Shown here: positions 3,705 to 25,534 of the stretch, in pieces
Numbering within the stretch: the stretch's first letter is position 1
How the letters are laid out: each line of letters starts with the position of its first letter
Source: Oculina patagonica
Taxonomy: Eukaryota
Direction: 5' to 3'
DNA length: 64,000 nt
NCBI RefSeq assembly: GCF_052425735.1
Contig: NC_135767.1
Coordinates: forward strand, 15,562,001 to 15,626,000
Program-made: the position numbers and the translations under genes
The notes under the pieces: generated by a model
Told to the model about the DNA's origin: nothing
Databases searched by the model: none
What the model saw: only the letters and a program-made list of their open reading frames with translations

Positions 3705-4638
3705 GAAGCAAAATAATCAGGATAATAAAGGGGTCAATAAACATTTACAGACTGCTTTGAAGCATGCCAGATGTAAATTTTAAATACGTAATTAAAACCG
3801 TAAGACTAACAAATTCAAACCCATAGATTAAAGGGACTATGCCACGGATTGTAACAGATTTTTGAACGACTAAAATTTTTATTTGAAACTTAAAAATAAT
3901 TGCCCATTTTTATTAACAAATTCTATTTTCAGCGCTAAAACTGTTTAGAAAATAGCACAAAGTAAATACGTGCGCTGATTGGTTAAAAATTGTGTTTCTA
4001 TAACTCGATGGAGACACAGACAGTTGTCGTAGACACGGCAATCAATATTCACGGCGCTAAAATAAGCAATGCAAAAATAACAACTAATAATTGTGCCAAA
4101 TTTTAATGTCACAGCTGACAAAAACCAGGTTAAGACTAAACAAATATTTGCAAATTTTAAAACAAGCGAGTAAGATGTTTACAGAGCCCGCTACACATTC
4201 AAAAATAGTCTGTGAAAGAAATTATCGAAGCGGCTGACCTTTCAAAGAAGTATATGAATTGGCGCAACTTCACTCCATTCTAGGCTTTGCAGCACTTCAG
4301 AAGTATTCACAGCTCCTCAACTGGACAAGATATTCGTCCAGAATGCCGAGTCAAACTTCTTTTAACAGAAAAATAATTCACTTTCACCTCCAAGGTTCGA
4401 GTCGCTCGATCGTCGGTCGTCAAACCATTCGGTTAGTTCGATGAACCGAAATAAAACCACAATTCTTGACTCCTTCCAGTGCTGGACTTCAGTTAAACCA
4501 TCGACTTAGTTATTTCTCATAATTACGTTAACTTTGGGGCCTGTTTTCTTTGTTTGTTTGGCCAAACAACGGTGAATTTTAGCCTTGAAGCAAATGTTGA
4601 ACAGTTGATTTATTTCTGTTCATCGACTCCCGTACTAT

Positions 4639-5615
4639 AGTAGTAAGGCACAGCTGTTTAGCAGAATACCAATCACAGTGCAGGGATTATAGCAGATGAC
4701 CAATCACGTTACAGGGATCGGGTCACGTGACAAATAAGTAGTTCAAATTTTTGAGGCTGTGACGTCATCACTCGGACCACCAATCAGCGTTCAATGGCCG
4801 TTTATTACGTCATCATTGGCCGCGCGAGGCCTGGAACCGAGTTGACACGCGGGACGTCTGCGGGACCCGAGTAATCCCGCGCCCTATCTTAGCAAGACCA
4901 CCATCCTCGCAAACTGCCATGCTGTCCTTGTGGTATCTGAAACTAAATACTTGGCACTTAACGCATGCGCAGAGTAGTCTACGCGATTCACTCACAGAGT
5001 TAGCAAGCCGACCATCCTTTATATATGGTTCACAAACGGCCATGCTGCCCTTGTGGTATCTGAAACTAAATACTTGGCACTAAACGCATGCGCAGTTGAG
5101 TCTACGCGATTCACTCACAGAGTTAGCAAGCTGACCATCCTTTATATATGGTTCGCAAACGGCCATACTGTCCTTGTGGTATCTGAAACTCGATACTTGG
5201 CACTTAACGCATGCGCAGAGTAGTCTACGCGATTCACTCACAGAGTTAGCAAGCCGACCATCCTTTATATATGGTTCACAAACGGCCAGGCTATCCTTGT
5301 GGTATCTAAAACTAAATACTGTGCACTAAACGCATGCGCAGATTAGTCTATGCGATACACTTGCACTAAATAATGAGTTACCCCTCTTATGAAGACCCCA
5401 AAGGTATATAGGCTTTCCTTGTGGTATCTGAAACTAAACATTTTGCACTACACGCATGCGCAGTTGAGTCTATATTGCTTTTTCTAAGAATTTGGGTCGG
5501 CGATTCAGAGAAAACGCACGCTTGTAAAGCTATTTTTTAAAAAATCACGTGAGAGAGAGGGGGATGGGGGTATCCCCCTTTCTCGGGTGTACTGGGAACG
5601 AGTAAGAGAGTTTTG
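4639..5615 (+). repeat. Left terminal inverted repeat (977 bp)
   Basis: Reverse complement of 24433-25409; only one mismatch noticed (5335 vs 24713). Confidence 0.95.
4926..5470. repeat. ~4.5 tandem copies of a 123-bp unit within the left TIR (mirrored in the right TIR)
   Basis: CCTTGTGGTATCT recurs at 4926, 5049, 5172, 5295, 5417. Confidence 0.9.
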
Positions 5616-8897: not shown

Positions 8898-9109
8898 GTT
8901 TTTCTAGCTCTCTCTTCTAGTGTCTGGATCAATTCGCTGAAGTAAGTCTCGTTATATTCTCTCACGAATTTCCACATCTGTCGCTTTTTGGCCAAATGTA
9001 GCACGGTTTGCATGGCGTCGTAGTCCATGTCCTCTTCTCTCATACGCTCGAAATGACGACTGCACAGGTCCAAGAACGCGAGCCACACGTGATCGTTACG
9101 TACGAACAT
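8870..9109 (-). CDS. Polinton hypothetical protein (79 aa)
   Basis: ATG ORF filling the gap downstream of the ATPase. Confidence 0.5.
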   Translation of the reverse strand: MFVRNDHVWLAFLDLCSRHFERMREEDMDYDAMQTVLHLAKKRQMWKFVREYNETYFSELIQTLEERARKTCQDIRQQE

Positions 9110-9761
9110 CTCGAACGAATCTGTAACATCTCATGCATCCCTCGCCTTTTAAGAGGTGGCTAAAAATCCGTCTGTCGTCGCCACTGGCAGGGTGTAGATC
9201 CAATACCATGTAACCAAAGGGTCTTTCCGTCGTCTTGGTGTAGACGTCCATCACATCTTGCCATCGGGAGGGAAACGCTTGTAACAGTAAATTCCTCATG
9301 CCCAATTGATCGCGAGGGTTCTTGAAAGCCACGATGTAATGCGCATTTCGAGAAATGCTCTTGGCGTATTTTCCCGGCGGAAACATGTCTTGACACAAGT
9401 ACAGGACGGTGATGTTCCTGTGGTGGGAAAGTTTGGTGAACAGATCCAATACTCTCTTGTCGTTTCCTCCTTCTTCCATCAGATCGTCCAATACCATCAC
9501 CCCTCCGCGGGGAAACCATTTGGTCAAATCTACTTCTTCGGGAATCCCTTCGTGAAATTTCACGCCTCGCTTTTTCATGTTCGCGAAACCGTCTTGCCAA
9601 GCCCCAAAACAGTAATGAATGGTCTCAGGGGGTGTACTAAACAACTCTTTTGAGTGATTCAAAAGTACCGACTCGGTAAAACAAGTCTTTCCGCAGCTAG
9701 AGGGGCCCACGATCAAAATGCTAGAGGGCATCCGAAAGCTAAAGGCTTCACCGCGCTCCAT
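9096..9761 (-). CDS. A32/FtsK-like genome packaging ATPase
   Basis: Walker A GPSSCGKT, Walker B MVLDDLM, SHHRN and ISRNAHY motifs; first ATG at 9761. Confidence 0.93.
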   Translation of the reverse strand: MERGEAFSFRMPSSILIVGPSSCGKTCFTESVLLNHSKELFSTPPETIHYCFGAWQDGFANMKKRGVKFHEGIPEEVDLTKWFPRGGVMVLDDLMEEGGNDKRVLDLFTKLSHHRNITVLYLCQDMFPPGKYAKSISRNAHYIVAFKNPRDQLGMRNLLLQAFPSRWQDVMDVYTKTTERPFGYMVLDLHPASGDDRRIFSHLLKGEGCMRCYRFVRDVRT

Positions 9762-9893
9762 GGCGAAATGACATTCGTCAAAAAACGAGCAATGATATAA
9801 GCATGTTGCAGAAAAAAAGTCTGCAACGAATCCCGATCTCCCGAGCGACAGACGACACACACCTTATTCATTTCAACGTTTTTATTTGTCATC

Positions 9894-10463
9894 TCACAAC
9901 AACAAGTGTCTTACACCGCAGAGAGACGGTTCACAATCCTGATGGTATTCCATCTTACAAATTTTGTGCCACGACCTTTCCTTCGAGATCAATTGCTTCA
10001 ACATTTGCCCAACTTTATGATCATTGTACACGTAATCGTGTTTCTTGAATCTCGCTTCGAATTGACTCATGCTACGTCCTTCGGCCCTATCGATGAGATA
10101 CATCAACGCGTAATCGCCGCAGCTCTGACTGTACAACGATTGTAGACTCTGTCCGTTGCGCTCCACGTACTTCCAATGAGCGTCCAACCAATCTTGCAAC
10201 GGTTGCGCCGTCTGGTACACCTCCAGGGGTAAGGCGTAACTGTCCAACACTTCGCACACGTTTCCATTCGTCCACAGAGCGATCCAATGCCGACCGCGCA
10301 TGTAGTGGGGATCGGTGTTGACGATGTACCCGCGGGCTTCCGTCTTGAATGGTTTTCGAGGTAATCGATCGCAGGCCACCGTCCCGTAAAAGTAAGGTTT
10401 CAACGAAGGGTGATGTCTGGCCAGCTGATCCAACTGCACGTTATTCAAAGTCACTTTTTCCAT
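9894..10463 (-). CDS. Adenain-like cysteine protease (PRO)
   Basis: IVNTD...GRHWIAL...LDSY...QSLYSQSCGDY (His/Asp/Gln/Cys); AATAAA downstream at ~9879-9884 (minus strand). Confidence 0.92.
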   Translation of the reverse strand: MEKVTLNNVQLDQLARHHPSLKPYFYGTVACDRLPRKPFKTEARGYIVNTDPHYMRGRHWIALWTNGNVCEVLDSYALPLEVYQTAQPLQDWLDAHWKYVERNGQSLQSLYSQSCGDYALMYLIDRAEGRSMSQFEARFKKHDYVYNDHKVGQMLKQLISKERSWHKICKMEYHQDCEPSLCGVRHLLL

Positions 10464-10465
10464 CA

Positions 10466-11869
10466 CTAACGCTGGTACACGTCGTACAACACGGCTTTGT
10501 TCTTGTCTATCTCCAAGAGATTCTCAAACTCTCCGTACACGATGATGGTCAAGTTCACAGCTGGGTTGGCTCCAAAGTTCAGCTCTATTAGTAGATTTCC
10601 GGCTTGCTTGGGGTTCATCCTGTAACTGTCCACGCATCCATTGGCCACGTTGTCGAACACGAACAACGTGCAATTCTTTCCTTGTCCCCAATCGTCACCT
10701 CTCACCATGTTTCCTTGCTGCTTGCACAGACATCCGGTGGCTTGCAAGAAACGGTGGTACCCTCTGAGATCTTTGGTGCCATCGTTGTGGACCAACTCTA
10801 GCGTCTCGTAAGGATACTCTTCTCCTCCCACGAGTTGTTTTATGCTGCTCATTCCAAACTTCTGAAAACAGAAGGGATCGTTGACCACGTTCCCGGTGAA
10901 GGCTGTGGACAGTACCATACCCACGATCACGCGGTTGGGAATTCTTCCTTGGAACAAGTTGGTGCATTCGTACCGTCGTTGATCTCCCTGCATGTTGAAG
11001 GTCCGAATCTCGCTTCTCACGGTCGGGTAACTCACCACTTGACTCTTGGTGGTCATCTCATCCATCAGTCTCCTGTACGTCGTGGGATTGAGACGCACTT
11101 GACACAGGTACATTCGAACTTTGACTTCCTCGGCCGTCAACTTTCCTGCCAGACCCACTCCGTTCAAGAACACGTCGGGAGAATTGAAGTACATCTGTAT
11201 TCCTATCTGCACTCTGGGTACCAACAACTTGCTCAGATGAAACACTTCGATGAGGGGTTTGAAACGCAACACGTGTCGCTTGCCTTCCGTGTAATTGGCT
11301 TGTTCTGCTTTAGAGTTCTTGAGAGCCTCCTTGTGATTGGCGGTCAGGGCTACATAGTCTGCGTGTCCAGCTCCAGCGTTGGCTGCAGTGTTCGTGTTAT
11401 TGTCCGTCCACGTGGCTGGGAAATCGATATGATTGTACCATCCTTGAGGTTTCAAGATGGTTTCTCCATCACGTCTGTCGTAATTCAGCAACGTTTCCAA
11501 GAAGGCTCTGTAATGGTACGTGTCCGTCTGGGGACTGATGAGAGTACCGTTGAGACGCACGCTGATTTGCTTGAACAGAGAATGGGCTAGATTGTTGACG
11601 GGCCACAGCTTGTCGGCAGCTGCCACGTTCTCATCGTTGTCTTTCTTCAGTTGCAATTCTACCTCGAAAAAGCTACGGCTGAGATCGATGTAATCTTCTT
11701 GGGGGTCGATCTGAAACTCCACCGGATTGATGCCTGTGGTGTAGGTCTGAACGGGGACCATCCGATACGACGAGACGCTGACGTCTGTCGGTGGTACGGC
11801 GAATAGATCCAATCGAGGATTGGCCTCGCGTCTCGACTGCGGGTAGGCGCTCGAGATGGTTTCGGTCAT
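10466..11869 (-). CDS. Major capsid protein (double jelly-roll, hexon-like), 467 aa
   Basis: LDLFAVPPT, YIDLSRS, PVNNLAHSLFKQI, YHYRAFLETLLNY motifs of Polinton MCP; located between mCP and protease; ATG 11869 overlaps upstream TGA. Confidence 0.85.
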   Translation of the reverse strand: MTETISSAYPQSRREANPRLDLFAVPPTDVSVSSYRMVPVQTYTTGINPVEFQIDPQEDYIDLSRSFFEVELQLKKDNDENVAAADKLWPVNNLAHSLFKQISVRLNGTLISPQTDTYHYRAFLETLLNYDRRDGETILKPQGWYNHIDFPATWTDNNTNTAANAGAGHADYVALTANHKEALKNSKAEQANYTEGKRHVLRFKPLIEVFHLSKLLVPRVQIGIQMYFNSPDVFLNGVGLAGKLTAEEVKVRMYLCQVRLNPTTYRRLMDEMTTKSQVVSYPTVRSEIRTFNMQGDQRRYECTNLFQGRIPNRVIVGMVLSTAFTGNVVNDPFCFQKFGMSSIKQLVGGEEYPYETLELVHNDGTKDLRGYHRFLQATGCLCKQQGNMVRGDDWGQGKNCTLFVFDNVANGCVDSYRMNPKQAGNLLIELNFGANPAVNLTIIVYGEFENLLEIDKNKAVLYDVYQR

Positions 11870-12102
11870 CGTCTTCTCTTCCTTCTTCCACGGCGCTTCC
11901 GTAAGGTCTGTATCCAGTCGTAGCCAGGAGGCTTTCTGACCTCGGGACCTATCCACCCGCCCTTTTGTACTTTTCGTCGTCGCCTCTTTTGTCCCAACAA
12001 GGCCTGGTTCAAAAGTGCCAGTGAGAATCCTTCTCCCCGCTGTCTGACGGGGGCGCGTTTGGATCGGACCAGTCTGGACGATCGCGAGTAAACGGGATTC
12101 AT
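11866..12102 (-). CDS. Small basic core-like protein with two protease-type sites
   Basis: QRGEG/F and QKGG/W motifs, Arg tracts; ATGA overlaps at both ends. Confidence 0.65.
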   Translation of the reverse strand: MNPVYSRSSRLVRSKRAPVRQRGEGFSLALLNQALLGQKRRRRKVQKGGWIGPEVRKPPGYDWIQTLRKRRGRRKRRR

Positions 12103-12356
12103 TTTTCGGCAAAGATGTCGTTCAGTTTTCTCTTGACGTTTCGTTCTATGACGTTTTTCAGTTTGCGTTTCACGACTCGTTTAGGACCACTCTTGGCTCC
12201 TTGACCCGCTTTACGAATGCGGTCCGCGACGCCGCGCCCACTCTTAAATCCTCTCACGGCTCCACCCAGAGACTCTCTCACGATGTCGGCCAAAAATCCG
12301 TTCCCCTCTTGAGGTGGAGGATCCGGTGTGAAACGCGTCAGGGCACCGCCTCTCAT
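12099..12356 (-). CDS. Basic amphipathic protein, adenovirus pVI-like/cupiennin-like membrane-active candidate
   Basis: MRGG/A and QEGNG/FLADIVRESLGGAVRGFK; located between mCP and MCP. Confidence 0.6.
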   Translation of the reverse strand: MRGGALTRFTPDPPPQEGNGFLADIVRESLGGAVRGFKSGRGVADRIRKAGQGAKSGPKRVVKRKLKNVIERNVKRKLNDIFAEK

Positions 12357-13384
12357 GTTCGCTTGATATGTAAGGTCACGATCGTGTTGCCTTCGCCAAA
12401 ATCCACCAGTTTACCTGTAGTCTCGCTCACTTGCGTTTCAATAATGTCCACAATCTGGTTGCGGAGTGGAATATATTGTATGTGGAGAGGTTCAAAGTAC
12501 TTGATACCTTTTCCTTCACGTTGAAAGTGAATTTCCCGCAACAGATCCGTGACTTGATTTCCCACTACGGAACTACCACCCACATCTGAGTAAACGAAAA
12601 GCGTACGCGATGCGTCTCCAATCACTTTTTGGAAGGCTCTGTTGAGTTTCACAAAGCGCCAGTTACAATAGCAACTCAAGAAAAGCTGTCCATTCTCAAC
12701 AACCCAGAAATTTTTCTTGCCCTCTCCAAAATCATCCACGTCTATGGGATCGGGTATCGTAGCGTGGTGGCATTCCGGCTTCAGGTTCGGCCCGAGAAAC
12801 ACGTTTTCTTTCTCGTCCTTTTTTACCCATCCCATGTCAAAGGCCAAATCCTCGTTGAAAGACATGTAATATGGGACGCCTTCAGTTTTCACTTCCGAGA
12901 CGTCCAAGTTCGAGTTGTCGAGGACTAGTTCTTCACCTTCCCACTTGAACGTATATTCCCACTGCTTTCCATTATCGGGCGACTTGGTCAAGTCTCCCAC
13001 GATACGCTTGTATTCTTTGACTTGATCGAACTTGAAGACCAGGGCTTTCATGAAACTGAGGCCATCCACGATGTTGTCGTCATATAGAATGTCCTGGAAC
13101 GTCAGATCGGTGGTCACCGACTTGCTTTGCACGCGACCCTCCTGGTCTTTGCGCTTGAGCATCCACTGGGCACTCAAGAGAGGAAACTTGAACGACTTAA
13201 AGCGAGTTAAGTCGATGCTGGCATCTGGCACGGAAATGCTACTCAATCCCACTTTCCAACCGGTTCCTTGCAATCGTAGCGGGTGAGGTAATCGCACCTT
13301 GAAAGAGTTTGCTCTATTCTCTGGAAACTCGGTTCCGCTGCTGTGACTGGGTAACGTGACGTAAAATCCTTCCTCGTGGCTCAT
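12353..13384 (-). CDS. Minor capsid protein (penton, single jelly-roll with insertion)
   Basis: FYVTLPSHSS...FPENRANSFKVRLP...WKVGLSSI; LFVYSDV...VGNQ..LLREI...YIPL...VTLHIKR. Confidence 0.88.
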   Translation of the reverse strand: MSHEEGFYVTLPSHSSGTEFPENRANSFKVRLPHPLRLQGTGWKVGLSSISVPDASIDLTRFKSFKFPLLSAQWMLKRKDQEGRVQSKSVTTDLTFQDILYDDNIVDGLSFMKALVFKFDQVKEYKRIVGDLTKSPDNGKQWEYTFKWEGEELVLDNSNLDVSEVKTEGVPYYMSFNEDLAFDMGWVKKDEKENVFLGPNLKPECHHATIPDPIDVDDFGEGKKNFWVVENGQLFLSCYCNWRFVKLNRAFQKVIGDASRTLFVYSDVGGSSVVGNQVTDLLREIHFQREGKGIKYFEPLHIQYIPLRNQIVDIIETQVSETTGKLVDFGEGNTIVTLHIKRT

Positions 13385-14469
13385 GATTTTTTTAGAGCCG
13401 TCTTCTCGATCCAGCTGTCGTACTTGTCTGGCCAGCCTTTCCAGTGCACCAAGACTTTATTTCCTTTTCGTTTGACGATCTTGTCCACCCTGAAGACATC
13501 GTCGTCGGACACTGCGACTTTTTGTAGATCTTCCTTGTAAAACGTACCGCGAAGGGGGGTGTCGTCCAACTCTTGGATCTTGTAAGTCGTGACGGGTGGT
13601 CCCCGACGCACCTCTCGTATCACAAACACTTCTTCGGTCCAGCCGGGTAAATACCCTTTCTCGAACGTGCGAAATTTCTTGTTCAATCTCACGCGTTCTC
13701 CTACTTTTAGCGGGGTTTTTCGTTCTCTTTTACCCGACGACAATCTCTTCGCGTACAGACGTTCCCACACTTTTCCTTCGTTGCTCGCATCCACTTTCTC
13801 GGGGTTGGTGCCGATGCTACGATGGTGGGATCCGTTGTACCCTTTCACCAAGGCCTGGAGTACGGGTAGGTAGCTCAGCGTGTTCTTGGCGGTAAAGTAT
13901 CGGTACATGCGTTCCTTGAGAGTGCGGTTGAAGCGTTCCACGATGCTGGCTTTGGTATCTCCGGCCGTGGAAAAGTGGTGGATGCCTTCCCGTTTCATCA
14001 ACGCGGCAAACGTCTTGTTGTAAAATTCTTTCCCGTCGTCGGTCTGTAGGTTCTGAGGTTTGCGTCCATCGGCTCGTTTCAAAATCTTGGCAAAGGCGCC
14101 CGACACCGTTTTTCCCGTCTTGTCTTTTAGGGGTTCCACCCAAGCATATTTAGACAAGACGTCGATCACGTTGAGTAGATATCTGTGACCCTTGTTGTAT
14201 TTGGACAACGGTTGCGTTTCCACTAAATCGGCTACCCACTGTTGGTCGACATTAAACACCAGGACCGGTAACGTGGCAAAACGACGTCTGCGCGGTTTGT
14301 GAAGGGTATAACCCAAATCGCGCTCCAATACTTTTTTGGCTGTGTCGACGGATATCTTGTGCGATTTGGCGAATCTTGCTATCCCACCCAAGCTACCCGG
14401 TTGACTGGGATCGTGGTAGTCCGAAAGTATCTTCTCATCCTTTTTCTTTTTCTTCATCTTCTTTGGCAT
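13381..14469 (-). CDS. Retroviral-type (rve) integrase with C-terminal chromodomain
   Basis: DDE core WVADLV / QTDDGKEF / IVERFNRTLK; chromodomain VHWKGWPDKYDSWI. Confidence 0.95.
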   Translation of the reverse strand: MPKKMKKKKKDEKILSDYHDPSQPGSLGGIARFAKSHKISVDTAKKVLERDLGYTLHKPRRRRFATLPVLVFNVDQQWVADLVETQPLSKYNKGHRYLLNVIDVLSKYAWVEPLKDKTGKTVSGAFAKILKRADGRKPQNLQTDDGKEFYNKTFAALMKREGIHHFSTAGDTKASIVERFNRTLKERMYRYFTAKNTLSYLPVLQALVKGYNGSHHRSIGTNPEKVDASNEGKVWERLYAKRLSSGKRERKTPLKVGERVRLNKKFRTFEKGYLPGWTEEVFVIREVRRGPPVTTYKIQELDDTPLRGTFYKEDLQKVAVSDDDVFRVDKIVKRKGNKVLVHWKGWPDKYDSWIEKTALKKS

Positions 14470-15564: not shown

Positions 15565-15840
15565 TCACTGCTCTTGGCTTGCTTCGGCCGAACCTTTGTG
15601 TAATGCACTCTCCAGATCACAAAACCAATGCTCTTGACACTGCATAAACGTGTAGCCGGCTTCCATGCCACGTTTCGCGCGCTCCAATAGGTAATCTTCG
15701 TCCGATTGATAATCGCCCCTTTTTAGATCCCTATAGTAAGGCAATGGTTCCCAGTCCTTGGGATCTCCTTGTACAAAGACACCGTTGACTTGTGGGGTTT
15801 GAGGTTGAGTTTGGCTGAAATCGCTCTCTGTGCTTTCCAT
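15565..15840 (-). CDS. Polinton hypothetical protein (91 aa, acidic)
   Basis: First ATG after a TATA/Inr promoter on the minus strand. Confidence 0.6.
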   Translation of the reverse strand: MESTESDFSQTQPQTPQVNGVFVQGDPKDWEPLPYYRDLKRGDYQSDEDYLLERAKRGMEAGYTFMQCQEHWFCDLESALHKGSAEASQEQ

Positions 15841-15844
15841 CGCT

Positions 15845-16025
15845 ACAACTGAGTCGACAAATGGACGCGCAGCTCTTTTTATACGTTGGATGACGTCACC
15901 TGGGTCATTGCCGGTTGGTCGGAAGAGGTCACGTGTTACCTCTCTGGTTGGTTCGTGCGTATTGACGTCATCCGAGAGTAAAGTATAAAAGCACCGTGTT
16001 GTCTCCTGTTAGTCCTCAGTTGGAG
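15845..16025. promoter_or_regulatory. Symmetric bidirectional Pol II promoter
   Basis: TATAAAA at 15877-15883 (-) and 15984-15990 (+); TCAGTT Inr at 15847-15852 (-) and 16016-16021 (+); CRE TGACGTCA at 15891 and 15963; E-box GTCACGTG at 15928. Confidence 0.75.
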
Positions 16026-16038
16026 CATCGAGAGCACC

Positions 16039-16947
16039 ATGGACGTAGCAGAACCCCAAAAAAAGCGACAGAGGAGAGGGACTGGAAACCCCAAGAAACC
16101 CAAAGTCCCCCGTAAAAAGAGACATCCTACAAAGAAGAAGATGGAGTTGAAAGAGGAAGTGTTGGAGGAGGGTGAAATTTTCGACCCCGACCAGTTCCTG
16201 CAACAGACCTTTGTCGACACGGAGCGCGACCCGGTTTGCCCCGTCCACAAAGAACCGCTGACCAAGAGAATGACGGACGGGGGATGGGAGTTCTACTTTT
16301 GCCCCCACACGAGCGAAGGCACCATCTGTTTCATTTGCACCGGTAGCGCCCACATTGACCAGTACGTGGTGGCGGTCAATCAACAGTTACCGGCTTACTA
16401 TTATTGGAACACGGATAAGATGAAATGTTACTGCAACGAGAGTCTCATTCTGAGCATGTCGAAATCAGAGAGCAACCCGGACAGGATCTACCTCAAGTGC
16501 AGAAAGGGTAAATGCCGGTTCTTCCAATGGGCAGACAGTCTTCCGTTTGGCAAGATCAAAGCCTGGCTGGAAGGAAAGGAATATGTGGGAAACGAGGATC
16601 CCCTCTACTCGAGAAGGTCTGGACTGGACTCTAGGGACGAATTTGGATACCCCAGAAGAGGACAAGACGTGGTGGATAGACCGCAACGAATTCTGGATGG
16701 GAGACCCGCCTTCAAAGTACAACACTACCCACCCCCGGTCAAGGATTGGATTGGTGATCTTCCCTTGGACGAGTCATTGGTCAAACAGTGTCAAGAGCAA
16801 AAGTTTTGGGTGGATGGAGAAGGGAAAATTATTCTTCCCCCGGAATTGGCTGGCGTGAAGTACGACTCGGATGAAGAGAAAATGCTGAGAAATCAACTGT
16901 ATCTGAGATGCATTTCCCAGAAACAATATCCTAATTTGGATCATTGA
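16039..16947 (+). CDS. GRF-type zinc-finger protein with N-terminal NLS
   Basis: CYCNESLILSMSKSESNPDRIYLKCRKGKCRFFQWAD = zf-GRF; a second related Cys/His cluster CPVH...FYFCP...CFIC; KKRQRR/PRKKRH NLS. Confidence 0.8.
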   Translation: MDVAEPQKKRQRRGTGNPKKPKVPRKKRHPTKKKMELKEEVLEEGEIFDPDQFLQQTFVDTERDPVCPVHKEPLTKRMTDGGWEFYFCPHTSEGTICFICTGSAHIDQYVVAVNQQLPAYYYWNTDKMKCYCNESLILSMSKSESNPDRIYLKCRKGKCRFFQWADSLPFGKIKAWLEGKEYVGNEDPLYSRRSGLDSRDEFGYPRRGQDVVDRPQRILDGRPAFKVQHYPPPVKDWIGDLPLDESLVKQCQEQKFWVDGEGKIILPPELAGVKYDSDEEKMLRNQLYLRCISQKQYPNLDH

Positions 16948-17012: not shown

Positions 17013-17534
17013 ATGACTCCGGAAAACGTGTGCATGATCTTGGACTTGGAAGGTTACTTTGTGGAGAAGACGTTTCGAGTACGCGAGTTGGGTTATTACA
17101 CTTGGCAAGAAAAGTTCGGACGCCATGCTTTCTACATGAGAATGTCGTGGTGCAACTTATCTTCCAGAGACAGAAAAACCGTGTCTTACGTCAAATACAA
17201 CGTGCACGGACTGACGTATCAACCCAGAAAGGAAGAAAAGGCCTACGAGTATGACAGGGTGGAGGAGGTGATGTGGGATTTGTACGAGGAGACCAAAACC
17301 CCCGAGAGAACCGTGGTGGCTTACAAGGGAGGACACGTAGAAAGAGACTTGTTGAACAAACTGAACATTCCTAGCGTGAATTTAGAACTGTACGGATGTC
17401 CGAAATACGACGTGTTGAAAGAGACAATTGTAGAACCTTTACCTAGTTGCGGTTTTCATCTATACGAAGGACATTGTCCAATGACCGAATGTCATGCTTT
17501 CTGGTTATGGTACCAGACTTTTGTTGTTAAATAA
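17013..17534 (+). CDS. DnaQ/DEDDh-fold nuclease, Maelstrom-like
   Basis: ExoI ILDLEG, VRELG, VHGL, ERDLL, C-terminal CGFH...HCPMTEC; stop overlaps AATAAA. Confidence 0.68.
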   Translation: MTPENVCMILDLEGYFVEKTFRVRELGYYTWQEKFGRHAFYMRMSWCNLSSRDRKTVSYVKYNVHGLTYQPRKEEKAYEYDRVEEVMWDLYEETKTPERTVVAYKGGHVERDLLNKLNIPSVNLELYGCPKYDVLKETIVEPLPSCGFHLYEGHCPMTECHAFWLWYQTFVVK

Positions 17535-17589: not shown

Positions 17590-18760
17590 TTAAACAACAA
17601 CAACAAATACCGCACGCTAAATTATATTTTTTCGCGAACGGTGAAAATCACAACAAAGTCGATGACACTTGTGCTTAGAGTCCAAAAATATGAAATTTTC
17701 GGCTCAATAACATTCATCGAAATAATATCTTTTATGGTTGGACGTCTTTTTGATTTAAGGGCCGAAAAAAATATTTTTTCTTCGAGAAAAAACATTTGAA
17801 CAACGGCCGAATGAACCACCTACAACGATTATATTTTTAGCGGCCGGTGAAAAAATCACAACAAACTCGTTGACACACTTGTTTAGGGTGTAAAAATGTG
17901 AAGATCCGGCTCAATGACTTGCTTTGAGATTCACTAAAATAATATCATTCATGGTTGGACGTCCCTTTCATTTCAGGGCCGCAAAAACAAACAAACAAAC
18001 AAACGCATTTAAACAACAACAAATACCGTACGCTAAATTATATTTTTTCACGAACGGTGAAAATCACAACAAAGTCGATGACACACTTGTTTAGAGTCTA
18101 AAAATGTAAAAAAGTCGGCTCAATGACTTGCTTTGCGTTTTACTAAATTAATACCATTCATGGTTGGACATCTCTTTGATTTAAGGGCCGCAAAAACATT
18201 TTTTCCTCGAGAAAAATGCATTTGATCAACGGTCAAATGAACTGCACGCTAAAATTATATTTTTTCGCGACCGGTGAAAATCACAACAAAGTCGATGACA
18301 CTTGTGCTTAGAGTCCAAAAATATGAAATTTTCGGCTCAATAACATTCATCGAAATAATATCATTCATGGTTAGACGCCCCTTTGATATAAGGGTCGCAA
18401 AAAAAAAAATTTTTTTCTTCGAGAAAAATGCATTTGAACAACGGCCAAACGAACCTCACGCTAAAATTATATTTTTTCGCGAACGGTAAAAATCACAACA
18501 AAGTCGTTCACACACTTGTTTAGAGTCTAAAAATGTGAAAGGTTCGGCTCAATAACTTGCTTTGAGTTTCAGTGAAATGATATCATTCATGGTTGGACGT
18601 CCCTTTTGATTTAAGGGCCGCGAAAAAATTTTTTCTTCGAGAACAAACATTTGAACAACGGACAAATGAACCGCACACTAAAATTATATTTTCTCATCAA
18701 ACGGTATATAGAATCACAACAGAGCGGTTGACACATTTGTTTAGGATTTACAACGTTTAA
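17590..18760. repeat. Internal tandem array, ~6 diverged ~210-bp units
   Basis: AATCACAACA recurs at ~17645, 17854, 18062, 18279, 18490, 18712 with similar flanks. Confidence 0.88.
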
Positions 18761-19253: not shown

Positions 19254-19535
19254 TTCCGAGAATGAACACACGCGGGTTCCTAGAATTCCGAGAATTCCGA
19301 GAAAGATTCTCCACGCGCGTGCGTCGGGATTTTTCCCTTGGGGAAAATCCCGTCAGCTTGGGATTTTACCCTTGTGGGGAAAATCCCGTCACCTTGGGTG
19401 ACATTGATCATGAGATCTCATTGGTTCATTCTGTATCAGGTCACCTCGATTGACCAATGGGAATATTAGAGCCCAGTTCTTCTGGGATAGGAAAGTTGTA
19501 TAAAACGCGCTGCACTGCTAGAAAACTTCAGTTTT
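19254..19535 (+). promoter_or_regulatory. pPolB promoter with GAS-like and kB-like motif clusters, CCAAT, TATA and Inr
   Basis: TTCN3GAA at 19254, 19277, 19286, 19295; GGG(A/T-rich)CCC at 19326, 19340, 19360, 19376; CCAAT ~19454; TATAAAA 19499; TCAGTT with A at 19530. Confidence 0.65.
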
Positions 19536-19824
19536 GCCGGCCCATGGGGGCCGAACAGGAAGAAGCCAGAAGAAGCAAGCAAGAAAGAAGACAAGCAAGA
19601 AAAAAGCAAGCAAGAAAGAAGACAAGCAAGAAGAGGACATCGTGGTAAGAGAACCTTTCAGTCCTGAATTTTATTTTTATTTTTTGGAGCAATGAGTGTC
19701 TTGGGTTTTCGGATTTGAAAATTGGATTTTTTGTCGTTCGTCATAAAATTAATTGTGTGACTGATAAATGCCTTTGACATATTAATGTGTAATGTTTTCG
19801 TTTTTGTAGTTGGACCCGTCTAAC

Positions 19825-22800
19825 ATGGGAGAAAATGATTCAATTAAAGACATTGCGGTAAGTAAATTTTAAGTGATTGTCTGTGCAAGTAGTCGATTAC
19901 TGATCGACAAGGTCGTAGTCATTTCATGGTTTAGGCGCCGACTACGTTCCTCCCTCCCTGCTTGCTGTGCACATGCGTTTATGAAGATGCTTGATTACAA
20001 CAAACAACCCATCCTTCATATCTGGCAATCCACAAGCCAATCAGAAGACCTGCTGTCAATTAAAATATGTCAAACCTGTGAAATAGCTAGCATCTCGAGC
20101 CGGTATGTAATAGCCCGAATATAAACGTTGTGATCGGTTAGGTCGATAACATGTAATCTCGTTGTTTGAATAAATTAAAAAAGAAGCGTGTTGTTTTTCA
20201 TTCTTCAAAATGTTTGAATCGTAGGAGTGGAGCAACGAGTGGAACGATGATGGTGACGAACTTTTGGCGGACTCCGTTGATCAATCAGTGCAAGACGAGC
20301 CAGGATTCGATTTCCAACTTTTCCCCCACGTGGATAGACGGGTCAGGAGATTCGGGCTGAGACACAGGAACTACACGGCGCGATTGGTCCAACGTGGAGG
20401 CGGGGTCGACCTTTCCGTACCCCTAGGACCCAGACCCGTGCTGGCGGGCGAGATCGAGGAGGCCCTGCAGCGAGCCATCAACAGACAAGTGCTGACGGAC
20501 GACGCCGTCCGATTGGACGATCACTTGCTGATCAACATCAACTCCAACAGACTAAGGAACGCGTACCACTCGCGTCGATTGAGGGTCAGAGATTGGAGAG
20601 ACAACACTCTCCCTGCCAGACAAGTGTTGGACCAACTTAGCAACATGCTAAATTCTGATCAGCAGTTTAGAATAGACGACAGTTTTAACCTGAACATCAG
20701 CCACATACAGGACCCCGGAAGAGGAGGTAGACCACCCAAAGTGGGACTGGACGCCATAGAAAAGATTTTGGACGAGAAAAAATCGGTGATTAAAATTACA
20801 AACACAGACTCACTGTGCTGCGCCCGAGCCCTGGTGACCATGAAGGCTCATAGAGACCTTGGCGCCAGTGACAATAGATACAAGAATATACGACAAGGAA
20901 GTCGAGTCCAAGAACGTTTGGCCAAAGAGTTGCACCGCTCGGCCGGTGTAGCAGAAGGACCTTGCGGCCTAGACGAACTGCAAAAATTCCAAGTGTCATT
21001 GGCAGAGTACCAGATCGTGGTAATATCCGTCCAGCACGGCTACCAAATCATATACAAGGGACCGCAAAGACCGGAAGCCAAGCGTCTGATCCTAATAAAG
21101 AACGGCGACCATTACCACGGTTGCAACTCTTTGAAAGGCTTCTTCGATAAAAACTTCTATTGTATAGAATGTGAAAAAGGTTACGACCACAATAACGCCA
21201 AAGACCACCGCTGTCTGGGTAGAAAGTGCTTCGCCTGTCACCAGAGCGATTGCCGCGACTACAAGCGAGCAGAAGGAGAGACGGCGCAGGTGCGATGCAA
21301 CGACTGCGGGCGCTGCTTCTTCGGGGACCGCTGTTTCAAGAATCACAAGCAAAGGCAGAGCGACGACGGGAAAAAGGCCGACGGACGAAAAAAGAACAGC
21401 GTCTGTCACACGAGAAAGAAGTGCGAACGGTGCCGAAAGACCTACGAAGGGTACGAATTGACCAACGGTCACCGATGCGGCCACGCCGAATGCCCGTCGT
21501 GTCGAAAGTACGTGGACCTCAACGCCCACAAGTGCACGATCCAAAATCCAGAAAAGTTGGAAGAAGACAGAGAGAAGAGGCGGGCTAGAAAGAGGAGGAA
21601 CGACGGCACCCGAATCGTCCCGCAAGAACCCGAACCGCCCGTGTTCGTCTCGTGGGACGCGGAGGCCAGACAGGAAGAGGGCATACACGTTCCAAACCTC
21701 ATATGCGCCATGACAACGAACAGCGAGGAAGAGTACCAGTTCGAGGGGGAGACGTGCGTGAAGGACTTTTTGGATTGGTTGAGAGAGATCGCGGAGGACT
21801 CCAAGGTGATCGCCGTGGCCCATAATTTCCAGGGCTATGACGCCTACTTTGTGTTGGACGAACTGTACCGACAAGGCATCTGTCCCGACCAGGTGGTCAA
21901 CGGGGCCAAGATCTTATCCATGAGCATACCCAACATCACGTTCAAGGATTCGATGTGCTTCCTGCAAATGCCCCTGTCCTCGTTCCCCAAATCCTTCGGA
22001 CTGACGGAAGAAAAGAAGGGGTTTTTCCCGCACTTTTTTAATACCGTGAACAATCAGAACTATGTGGGACGGATCCCTGCCCGTGACTATTATGATCCCC
22101 AGGGCATGTCGAAAGAGAGAAAAGAGGAGTTTGATCAGTGGTACGCTGAACGATTGGCCGAGAACTATCACTTCGACTTTCAAAAGGAACTGATAGCTTA
22201 CTGTAAATCCGACGTGAGGCTGTTGCACGAGGGATGTCGAGTCTTTAGAGAAGAATTTCGCGACGTGGCGGGGTTCGACCCCATGGAGAAGTGTCTGACG
22301 ATAGCCACAGCCTGCAATCTCTATTTTCGCACCAAGTGCATGAGAAAGGACACCCTGGGCTCAGAACCCGTCAGAGGATGGCACGGAAAAGGGAAACCTC
22401 ACTCCAGAGCTTCGATGGAATGGCTGTTGTACGTGGGGAACGTGACGCACGCCAGAAACGGTGGCGAAGCAGTCATTCCCGTGGCCGGCAAACGCGTTCA
22501 CGTGGACGGCCTGTCGACGGACGAGAAGACGGTCTATGAGTTCCACGGCTGTTTCTACCACGGTTGTCCGACGTGTTTTCCCCAGCGCGACAAGAAGCAT
22601 TCCAAATTGGACGGTAGGAGCATGAGAGACGCATACGAATCGACGCTCGACAAGACCGCGTCGCTGAGAGAAGCCGGGTATGAAGTTATAGAGATGTGGG
22701 AGTGCGAATGGAACGAGAAGAAGAGGACGGATGCTGACGTGGGCGCCTACGTGAAATCGCTGCGACTGACCGAGAGACTGGAACCGAGAGACGCGTTTTT

Positions 22801-24256
22801 TGGCGGGCGAACCAACGCCATAAAATTATACCACAAAGTCCAAGAGGGTGAAAAAATCCAGTACGTGGACTTCACTTCCCTCTACCCCTTTATCAACAAG
22901 AATTGCGAGTACCCCGTGGGACATCCCGAGATCATCGTGGAACCGGGCACCACGGACCTCTCTGGATACTTCGGGTTGGCCAAATGCACAGTGTCTCCAC
23001 CGCACGGACTGTACCACCCTGTACTGCCCTACAGGCACGGCGGAAAACTGACGTTTCCATTGTGTCGGACATGCGTAGAGACCGAACAGGGGAAACCGCT
23101 GACCGAAAGATCGTGCAAGTGTAAGCACAGTCCCGAGGAGCGGCAATTGACTGGGACCTGGTGCACACCAGAGATCGAGGAGGCCGTGAAACGCGGGTAC
23201 GTCATAGAACACGTCCACGAAGTGTGGCATTTTGAGAAGAAAGACGACACGCTGTTCAGAGAATTCGTAAACACATTTCTAAAAATGAAGCAAGAAGCCA
23301 GTGGTTGGCCATCGTGGGTGGGTGACGACGTGGACAAACGCGTCCAGTACATCACTCAATACGAGCAGAAAGAAGGCATCAAATTAGACGCCGACAAGAT
23401 CGAGAAGAACCCCGGAAGGAGAAGCTTGGCAAAAATGATGCTAAACTCCTTCTGGGGAAAATACGGGCAGCAGTCCAACAAGAGTCAAGTAGAGGCGTAT
23501 ACATCTCCGGCAGAGTTCCACGACCTACTCAGAAACGACGAGAAAGTCATCGAAGACCTGCGCGTGGTAAATCCTGAAATGATCGAGGTCGTGCACAAGA
23601 ACAAAGAAGCCTGCGACCCCGTTCAAGTGAATATCAACATCTTCGTGGCCTGCTTCACCACGTGTTGGGCCAGACTGAAACTGTATCGGGACGGGCTCTC
23701 CAAACTGCAAGACGAGCAGGTCCTGTATTTCGACACCGACTCCATCATCTACAAACGGGGCGAAGGAGAAGACGAACTACCCCTGGGCGACTATCTGGGA
23801 GAGTTTACCAACGAACTAGACGACGAGGATTTTATCGTCGAGTTCGCCTCGGCAGGGCCGAAAAATTATGGATATAAAACAAAAAACGGGAAAACTACCT
23901 GCAAAGTGCGAGGATTCTCGCTCAACGCGCGAGGATCCGAACAATTGAATTACGAGATCTTGAAGCAGAACGTGTGCGACGAAGTGGAGCGACCCTTGGA
24001 CAAGCCCCGACACATACCCGTATTCAACCCGCACAAAATTACGCGAGACAAGAAGACAAAACAACTCCACACGCAGACAGAAATAAAACAATACAGAGTC
24101 GTATTTGATAAAAGGGTCGTGGACCCTGACAGTTTCTTCTCTTACCCTTATGGGTATTTGAAGAGCAGACTTGAGGTGGAAGCTGAAGAGCTTATGGATT
24201 TGGCCGAATTGAACGAGCAAGACAAAAGGAACATTGAAGTATTAATGGACCTTTGA
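19825..24256 (+). CDS. pPolB: Protein-primed family B DNA polymerase (TP region, vOTU, Zn fingers, 3'-5' exo, VSR-like insert, polymerase); predicted spliced, 1354 aa
   Basis: WDAE, AHNFQGYD, FKDS, KGFFPH, YCKSDV, DFTSLYP, KMMLNSFWGK, YFDTDS, GPKNY; exon 19825-19857 (GTAAGT donor) joins in frame to 20225-24256. Confidence 0.95.
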
Positions 24257-24432
24257 CTTTTTTTATTTCATTATAAAACCATGACCACTATTTTCAATTG
24301 TTTATTTGCATCATGGTCAGGCGAACGAAAACGATGTAACGTTCCTTTATTGTGAGCACATTAAAGAACAGGTTGAACGTGTTCATGGTGTCTATTGCAT
24401 TCGATCACAGACTTGAGCAACACAAATATAGT

Positions 24433-25409
24433 CAAAACTCTCTTACTCGTTCCCAGTACACCCGAGAAAGGGGGATACCCCCATCCCCCTCTCTCTCACG
24501 TGATTTTTTAAAAAATAGCTTTACAAGCGTGCGTTTTCTCTGAATCGCCGACCCAAATTCTTAGAAAAAGCAATATAGACTCAACTGCGCATGCGTGTAG
24601 TGCAAAATGTTTAGTTTCAGATACCACAAGGAAAGCCTATATACCTTTGGGGTCTTCATAAGAGGGGTAACTCATTATTTAGTGCAAGTGTATCGCATAG
24701 ACTAATCTGCGCCTGCGTTTAGTGCACAGTATTTAGTTTTAGATACCACAAGGATAGCCTGGCCGTTTGTGAACCATATATAAAGGATGGTCGGCTTGCT
24801 AACTCTGTGAGTGAATCGCGTAGACTACTCTGCGCATGCGTTAAGTGCCAAGTATCGAGTTTCAGATACCACAAGGACAGTATGGCCGTTTGCGAACCAT
24901 ATATAAAGGATGGTCAGCTTGCTAACTCTGTGAGTGAATCGCGTAGACTCAACTGCGCATGCGTTTAGTGCCAAGTATTTAGTTTCAGATACCACAAGGG
25001 CAGCATGGCCGTTTGTGAACCATATATAAAGGATGGTCGGCTTGCTAACTCTGTGAGTGAATCGCGTAGACTACTCTGCGCATGCGTTAAGTGCCAAGTA
25101 TTTAGTTTCAGATACCACAAGGACAGCATGGCAGTTTGCGAGGATGGTGGTCTTGCTAAGATAGGGCGCGGGATTACTCGGGTCCCGCAGACGTCCCGCG
25201 TGTCAACTCGGTTCCAGGCCTCGCGCGGCCAATGATGACGTAATAAACGGCCATTGAACGCTGATTGGTGGTCCGAGTGATGACGTCACAGCCTCAAAAA
25301 TTTGAACTACTTATTTGTCACGTGACCCGATCCCTGTAACGTGATTGGTCATCTGCTATAATCCCTGCACTGTGATTGGTATTCTGCTAAACAGCTGTGC
25401 CTTACTACT
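24433..25409 (-). repeat. Right terminal inverted repeat (977 bp)
   Basis: Reverse complement of 4639-5615. Confidence 0.95.
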
Positions 25410-25534
25410 TACTATGATTGGTTGATTACTGTTGATGACGTAAAACCGCGAGGTGAAGAGAATCTACGTTTTAATGTTAAATAAAGCGCTAAATATTACT
25501 TTGTTGTGCGTTATTTTCTTTGTGCTGTTTTCTA

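Follow-up and report, generated by a model that had tools for sequence, protein, structure and literature searches.

The window, that is, the whole stretch of 64,000 nucleotides of Oculina patagonica DNA analysed here, contains an integrated Maverick/Polinton element, whose features are listed in Table 1. The element carries a protein-primed type B polymerase (pPolB, matching PF03175 with E 4.5e-46), a retroviral-type integrase and long TIRs bordered by a 6-bp duplication, and a Pfam profile search also places a PLA2-like gene and a GRF zinc ribbon inside it. The ORFs of 9096-13384 have no Pfam match, and we take them to be a capsid, a packaging ATPase and a protease from motifs, size and order only. 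Another ORF of 173 aa (17013-17534), likewise with no Pfam match but with 108 homologues, has a conserved D-x-E near its N-terminus and a C-terminus rich in Cys/His, presumably resembling a DEDD-type exonuclease. Among these 108 homologues only 2 are named to species, both from a scleractinian, and no relative of the element was found among the IMG/VR viral contigs. Because the 977-bp TIRs are identical, the element appears to have been inserted recently, and because a second copy, whose polymerase is 99.8% identical to that of the window, lies on another contig, its family has probably moved recently as well.

Several further features of the element should be recorded. Within each TIR there is a 123-bp repeat of 3.7 copies (4910-5361 and 24687-25138), every unit of which bears a TATA-like and a GCGCATGCG motif. 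At the inner TIR ends, two TTCN3GAA strings and a p50-type 11-mer occur in the same order as in the block described below, and another Maverick copy has three GAS sites at its inner TIR end (C2:42670249). The region 15840-16039 separates the leftward genes from that of the GRF zinc ribbon and looks like a promoter for both directions: TATA boxes occur on either strand, together with two TGACGTCA sites, and neither a kB nor a GAS site was found in it.

Table 1. Features of the Maverick element and of the region upstream of its polymerase gene (window coordinates).
Feature	Position	Strand	Remarks
Maverick/Polinton, 20.8 kb, integrated	4639-25409		TIRs, target-site duplication, gene set
Target-site duplication, 6 bp	left 4633..4638, right 25410-25415		from sequence
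Left TIR, 977 bp	4639..5615		100% complementary to 24433-25409
Right TIR	24433..25409
Inner TIR end	5482..5576; mirrored 24471-24566		TTCN3GAA twice (5482, 5504) and one p50-type 11-mer (5566)
Integrase, retroviral-type, with chromodomain	13381..14469	-	PF00665, PF00385
217-bp tandem array upstream of the putative enhancer	17596..18744		common to divergent copies
GAS-type site 1	19254..19262		TTCN3GAA; intact in 31/32 copies
GAS-type sites 2-4	19277..19303 (19277, 19286, 19295)		9-bp unit three times, abutting, no spacer
kB-like site 1	19326..19337		12-mer; array binding moderate in two registers, none in the third
kB site 2	19340..19351		contains p50-type 11-mer; array-bound in all three 10-mer registers
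kB-like site 3	19360..19371		12-mer; array binding weak
kB site 4	19376..19387		identical to site 2
Two CCAAT boxes	19420..19458		19420 reverse, 19454 forward
Core promoter	19499..19533	+	TATAAAA 19499 and initiator-like TCAGTT 19528; start predicted near 19530
Non-coding leader exon, predicted	19530..19644	+	donor GTAAG 19645, acceptor ending 19809; sequence only
Exon with pPolB start codon	19810..19857	+	ATG 19825, 11 codons; splice joint
Main pPolB exon, 1343 codons	20225..24256	+	PF03175

Four public runs (X1, X2, X5 and X22), whose treatments are unrecorded, were compared with 19700-24430. Two contigs of run X1 join 19857 to 20225 across a GT..AG intron, and because of this joint they must derive from RNA, although none of the listed runs is recorded as such; the joint also puts the ATG at 19825 in frame, and therefore pPolB has 1354 aa. 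Run X2 has a loose end that matches the upstream exon of the X1 joint, run X5 gave no pPolB joint over 19700-24430, and the poly(A) raw-read run X22 placed only 8 reads on the 4.7 kb. Contigs of X1 also extend without a splice across 19728-19858, which may mean that the first intron is retained or that transcription begins elsewhere than predicted.

The block upstream of this gene consists of eight motifs, which sit 112-245 bp before the TATA box with the two CCAAT boxes in between. All four GAS-type sites fit TTCN3GAA and also the STAT5-type TTCYNRGAA. The consensus of p50-type NF-kB sites is GGGRNWNYCCC, which is fitted by kB sites 2 and 4 and not by sites 1 and 3; the whole window holds only four such 11-mers, namely these two and one in each TIR. 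A CGTCA, which we take to be a half-CRE, follows directly after kB sites 2 and 4 (19351 and 19387). The first-pass annotation had described four GAS and four kB-like strings about 110-250 bp before the TATA/Inr of a viral polymerase. All eight strings are indeed there, the distance agrees, and the gene behind them is the spliced pPolB. However, its reading of the 11-12-mers as p50-type sites holds for sites 2 and 4, which fit the 11-mer and are bound on arrays (see below), but not for sites 1 and 3, which are 12-mers off the consensus.

The count of eight should also be discounted. GAS sites 2-4 arose as a 9-bp tandem unit and the kB sites as a 36-bp unit present in 2.1 tandem copies, and consequently the eight motifs are not independent; probably the abutting GAS sites could not all be filled simultaneously. 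Chance was therefore assessed with 400 simulated 64-kb windows from a 3rd-order Markov model. Four GAS sites within 60 bp occurred 0 times and three 4 times, and two kB-like sites within 40 bp occurred 0 times. Two GAS sites within 60 bp were found in 187 simulations; taken by itself and reduced to two sites, the GAS part is thus within chance. When the duplications are collapsed in both parts, the composite of two GAS sites and one kB site within 200 bp appeared in 1 simulation, and it thus exceeds chance. That is, the cluster of the first-pass annotation beats chance, but its 4 + 4 count is inflated by tandem duplication.

Could these sites be recognized by the host? The host genome encodes an NF-kB (PF00554, E 6e-31) with the DNA-recognition loop RFRYPCEG. 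Cnidarians have a single p50-like protein (PMC5700166), which binds DNA like human p50 (PMC5700166; PMC13042239). The rows searched in supplementary file 2 of PMC5700166 give array z-scores for the Nematostella Cys, Nematostella Ser and Aiptasia proteins, in this order below, on 10-mers in a fixed foreign flank, each listed on one strand; the proteins are thus of anemones, not of a coral. For kB sites 2 and 4 the three registers score 8.8/11.0/8.0, 8.0/7.3/5.7 and 7.7/4.7/5.6, compared with 12.7/11.4/12.0 for the reference palindrome on the array. Site 1 scores 6.8/5.1/5.4, 5.4/6.3/3.3 and -0.2/0.4/-0.9, and site 3 scores 4.0/3.0/4.0 and 2.0/3.7/0.7 in two registers, those other than GATTTTACCC.

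A DNA search of the host genome gave 54 matches, and 32 distinct loci bearing the block were read, 27 from this search (the window's own included) and 5 more fetched. Intact GAS sites number two in 7 of these copies, three in 11 and four in 14, while the right arm holds no kB site in 2 copies, one in 3, two in 7, three in 11 and four in 9. The block is followed by no fewer than five core promoters and four classes of polymerase, and the left-arm proteins of most copies are 84-100% identical. Because the left arms are so similar where promoters and polymerases differ, the common block reflects largely recent descent and cassette exchange; its occurrence before polymerases only 46% identical was accordingly rejected as proof of age. 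The exchange can be followed in three sets of loci (L001-L027, L091-L095 and L097-L110) with near-identical left arms and polymerases that are 99.8%, 67% and 46% identical; over a short segment the polymerases of L091-L095 are about 34% identical, and one exchange junction lies directly after the TATA box. The copies L091-L095 are 76-79% identical upstream, with rewritten spacers and different promoters, and still keep three GAS sites. Of the nine GAS variants of the 32 copies, six differ in the three central bases and the other three in the core, compared with a neutral expectation of two thirds in the core (p 0.04, or 0.09 before L095 was added, in a test that counts alleles and not events on a tree).

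Another 60 pPolB loci, of which 47 belong to a single distant family, were taken as a sample of 148 matches. Over 6 kb upstream, none of them has two strict sites (GAS or kB) within 90 bp of each other; five of these cluster-free loci have polymerase segments 67-77% identical to that of the window. Conservation of the GAS cluster across Maverick families was consequently rejected, the sampled loci being without clusters. In addition, TGACTCA stands beside GGGAAATCCCC or GGGAGATCCCC in 4 of the 47 sampled copies of the distant (about 40% identical) family (L055, L069, L085 and L090), at a distance of 2.7-3.1 kb before the pPolB segment that was matched, where a separate gain of AP-1 and kB sites is possible. 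In another Maverick family the integrase is followed downstream by a 13-bp tandem that contains CCAAT and GAS-like motifs (L212:5019; G000:C7:13904219).

More distant relatives were then considered. The pPolB N-terminus has 454 related loci in metagenomes (36-63% identity, hosts unstated); 80 of them were picked regardless of motifs, and 56 of these had at least 700 bp upstream of pPolB. A p50-type 11-mer occurs within 1.5 kb upstream in 20/56 loci and downstream in 1/56, while three control patterns occur upstream in 1/56, 0/56 and 3/56; the other 36/56 loci have no 11-mer within 1.5 kb. Counted by DNA-similarity cluster the figure is 6/12, and for cluster representatives it is 5/12, against a shuffle mean of 0.29. 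The host-genome background of 1 p50-type site per 38 kb predicts about 0.5, which gives P about 5e-5 for 5/12 if the clusters, which share ancestry, are treated as independent. A TATA-like box follows 24-117 bp after the 11-mer in 17 of the 20 loci (by loose patterns chosen post hoc), a CRE-like half-site lies within 60 bp of it in 13, and the 11-mer keeps its position before the TATA-like box in lineages whose flanks cannot be aligned. Most relatives with a kB site have a single one, and the G and C runs of the relatives are often longer than NF-kB needs. In some loci, however, the site has been amplified in tandem, in unrelated units (four times in L184, three times in L148/L162, twice in L172), and the 10-mers of these amplified sites are also array-bound (z 4.1-11.2 for Nematostella Cys, 5.7-8.9 for Aiptasia). 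On a tree of 53 rows, from which 4 rows had been dropped for stops, the site label falls on 13/23 rows on the window's side, where several unlabelled rows have a site further upstream, versus 4/30 elsewhere, and 5-9 changes are needed. We infer that the kB site is old in the pPolB clade of the window and was amplified several times separately. GAS sites, on the other hand, occur upstream of pPolB in 7/12 representatives versus 5.97 in shuffles, that is, without enrichment. The GAS block is therefore this one family's own, and it looks like a later gain. A reading of the block as heat-shock elements was also rejected, since on inspection the TTC/GAA spacing does not fit, and no HSE was found in the representatives.

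Some side observations belong to these searches. Of the 56 loci scanned, 11 have a gene for tRNA-His(GTG) before pPolB, on the + strand in L124, L126, L129, L130, L135, L137, L139, L140 and L162 and on the - strand in L117 and L179, and in several of them directly between the TATA-like box and the pPolB start. Extra tRNA genes are tRNA-Ala in L135, tRNA-Met in L179 and tRNA-Asp in L102. One may speculate that the tRNA-His is a VA-RNA-like or translation-tuning cargo. Among the matches listed for the host genome (G000), no p50-type 11-mer comes near GGGAGTACCCC in frequency; it probably forms the end of a host repeat present in many copies. Of 119 matches for kB pairs in the host, six were examined, one 5' of a gene for a ubiquitin-like and IBR E3 protein and the other five without assignment.

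As for STAT, the host gene was recognized by a STAT_linker profile match, and its N-domain, PVVVTVHGNQ and SH2 exons were read directly; a STAT_bind profile search of the host genome gave no match, although the gene is present. Four TTCYNRGAA sites lie within 730 bp upstream of its ATG (L196:116-632, G000:C7), a distance chosen post hoc, where the genome background is 1 per 6.1 kb, which suggests that the STAT gene may be autoregulated. A genome-wide search for triple GAS sites gave 69 matches, 50 of them listed, many from the Maverick family of the window. Among the matches listed, 16 places lie outside this family, and 14 were examined after two near-duplicates had been omitted. In 4/14 loci the triple lies 5' of, respectively, MOV10, a TUTase-like nucleotidyltransferase, a ricin-B/ApoL gene and an exon with a sacsin domain, and 2/14 precede HIT or HIT-like ORFs. 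Of the remaining loci, 1/14 is another Maverick, 4/14 lie by TMEM121, BTB, Ig and DUF6589 ORFs, and 3/14 are without assignment. The clusters of MOV10 and the TUTase-like gene use the same two 9-mers as the Maverick element. We take the MOV10, TUTase-like, ApoL and sacsin genes to be defence genes. With this labelling, 14 control loci with the reversed pattern gave housekeeping or no matches, 4/14 versus 0/14 (Fisher p 0.049), where it should be noted that the controls are mostly simple repeats with 10 ORFs searched per locus instead of 14, and that the test matches are all in the top 7. MOV10, sacsin and apolipoprotein have 0 mentions in the main text of PMC8713801 and PMC8476169.

Clusters of 3-5 GAS sites, in some cases with a TATAAAA after them, are found in host promoters at L206:4500-5350, L209:4950-5300, L205:4970-5170 and L203:4975-5040 and in L201 and L207. 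Among them, L206 has tandem promoter units of four GAS sites and a TATA each before a HIT-like ORF without Pfam match, and the cluster of L201 precedes a HIT exon; HIT proteins may thus be unrecognised STAT targets. The gene in L205 is TUTase/poly(A) polymerase-like, and its identification as OAS was rejected.

The GAS clusters before the STAT gene and before defence-type genes are suggestive sequence evidence for a cnidarian STAT regulon, for which knockdown had been inconclusive. STAT and NF-kB motifs are enriched in the promoters induced by poly(I:C) in Nematostella (PMC8476169), and a STAT5A-like gene is up in its activated immune cells (PMC13319465); a literature search for DNA binding by a cnidarian STAT found nothing. 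In PMC8713801, STAT knockdown did not reduce the cGAMP-induced genes of Nematostella, NF-kB knockdown cut its antibacterial genes, and cnidarian NF-kB entered nuclei after cGAMP. As the first-pass annotation held, cnidarians, and this host among them, have both factors. Its claim of NF-kB and STAT sites in the promoter is supported by the array binding of the kB sites, the recurrence of the p50-type site and the GAS 9-mers shared with host genes, but the GAS clusters are confined to one family. The conservation it had proposed as a check gives the same answer: the p50-type site recurs in related elements, and the GAS clusters do not. Its further idea of an induction switch for replication, relevant to bleaching, is more speculative, given the unchanged cGAMP response after STAT knockdown and the Stylophora expression data described below.

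Taken together, the block is likely a genuine enhancer for host NF-kB and STAT, which would raise pPolB transcription when these pathways are active; we give this reading a probability of roughly 0.6. NF-kB homodimers would occupy kB sites 2 and 4 and perhaps 1, while STAT dimers would occupy GAS site 1 and one or two of the abutting sites 2-4. Together with the factors of the CCAAT boxes and half-CREs, they would activate RNA polymerase II at the TATA box, and pPolB transcription would rise with the host pathways. The number of sites would be tuned by tandem duplication, and the block would be retained while the core promoter and the polymerase are exchanged by recombination. A wider proposal is more tentative: coral Mavericks may repeatedly have wired their polymerase to host NF-kB, and this family also to STAT, in which case dozens of integrated copies might be woken, in a prophage-like manner, by an infection, by antiviral signalling or by the NF-kB increase that comes after bleaching. 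The bleaching link has just two sources, namely the DNA-binding activity of NF-kB in bleached Aiptasia, up about sixfold following symbiont loss, and the activation by heat of other viruses in Nematostella, as reported in PMC12530282.

The same host factors could bind and yet produce no immune switch, the block setting a steady cell-type expression or even dampening the polymerase. Mammalian p50 homodimers often repress, NF-kB staining in Aiptasia is nuclear in symbiotic and bleached animals alike, and the spliced pPolB contigs come from runs with no treatment record. In Stylophora, according to PMC11131425, polintovirus genes are expressed in control and heated corals alike, with expression grouped by colony and not by heat treatment. 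However, cnidarian NF-kB activates kB reporters, and the repeated gain of sites in several lineages makes more sense if the element profits from additional ones, so we regard steady expression or dampening as unlikely, if still worth weighing beside an inducible enhancer.

It is less likely still that the motifs have a role in the replication, packaging or autoregulation of the element, either as hairpins in the DNA or as targets of a binding protein which it encodes, their likeness to kB and GAS sites being incidental. The same class of 11-mer does occur at the inner end of both TIRs, the kB pairs do fold into hairpins (-24 kcal/mol for 19320-19400), and the long G and C runs of the relatives would suit such a role. 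But the commonest arm pair has a fixed mismatch and no pair has a compensating change, L094 and L095 have direct repeats without a partner arm, and the relatives are mostly single-site. Furthermore, a scan of 17 element ORFs for known site-specific DNA-binding domains found none, only the GRF zinc ribbon and the chromodomain, and the observed variants are bound by cnidarian NF-kB on the array. Finally, neutral slippage may have multiplied one or two chance motifs in a repeat-prone spacer, which then spread with the family without function, as might be thought from the tandem repeats of both parts adjoining the 217-bp array, the frequency of paired GAS sites in simulations, the abundance in the host genome of G-rich palindromes such as GGGAGTACCCC and the absence of a cluster from most other pPolB promoters; but this is improbable in view of the rarity of the collapsed composite, the three GAS sites surviving among the rewritten spacers of L091-L095 and the constant position of the 11-mer where flanks do not align, and slippage accounts for the copy number, not for the recurrence.

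An enhancer run by host NF-kB and STAT would bear on how Mavericks/Polintons of animals are activated and on whether they ever escape from the genome, a question that becomes testable with a 135-bp block containing sites to which cnidarian NF-kB binds in vitro. If the reading is true, the immune state and the bleaching of corals would be tied to what a large family of endogenous viruses does; on the wider proposal, innate immune factors would bring about in an animal something akin to prophage induction, with the number of tandem copies setting its strength. That host NF-kB and STAT can drive viral promoters is well established, with WSSV ie1 for both and HIV and CMV for NF-kB; no such promoter was found in print for Mavericks. 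In the literature searched, which lay outside subscription journals and bioRxiv supplements, there was no report of cis-regulation, NF-kB or promoters for Mavericks/Polintons.

The closest parallel is the ie1 (WSSV069) promoter of the shrimp virus WSSV, which is driven by host NF-kB (PMC3171479) and by host STAT (PMC6941876). Both cases concern a DNA virus promoter in a marine invertebrate with sites for the two host factors, here known from sequence. However, WSSV is a large lytic virus and ie1 an immediate-early regulator, whereas the sites described here stand before the polymerase gene of an integrated element of 20.8 kb. The kB enhancers of the HIV-1 LTR, CMV and herpesviruses (PMC3171479) likewise have tandem kB sites upstream of a TATA box and couple viral transcription to host activation, but they use vertebrate p50/RelA instead of the single p50-like protein of cnidarians and belong to other classes of virus. 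The coral polintoviruses of PMC11131425 are of the same element class with the same gene set, and their hallmark genes including PolB are expressed; the main text of that paper contains promoter, NF-kB, intron and regulat- 0 times and describes no cis-regulation. The mavirus-type endogenous virophages of Cafeteria are integrated, related to Mavericks and reportedly reactivated upon infection, but mavirus is switched on by a giant virus, whereas for the Maverick of the window host RNA polymerase II and host immune factors are proposed. Endogenous retroviral LTRs with GAS or kB sites, for example MER41, are also multicopy mobile elements that spread immune-responsive sites. They are, however, mammalian LTR retroelements, while the present sites lie inside a DNA element and are directed at the polymerase gene which it carries itself.
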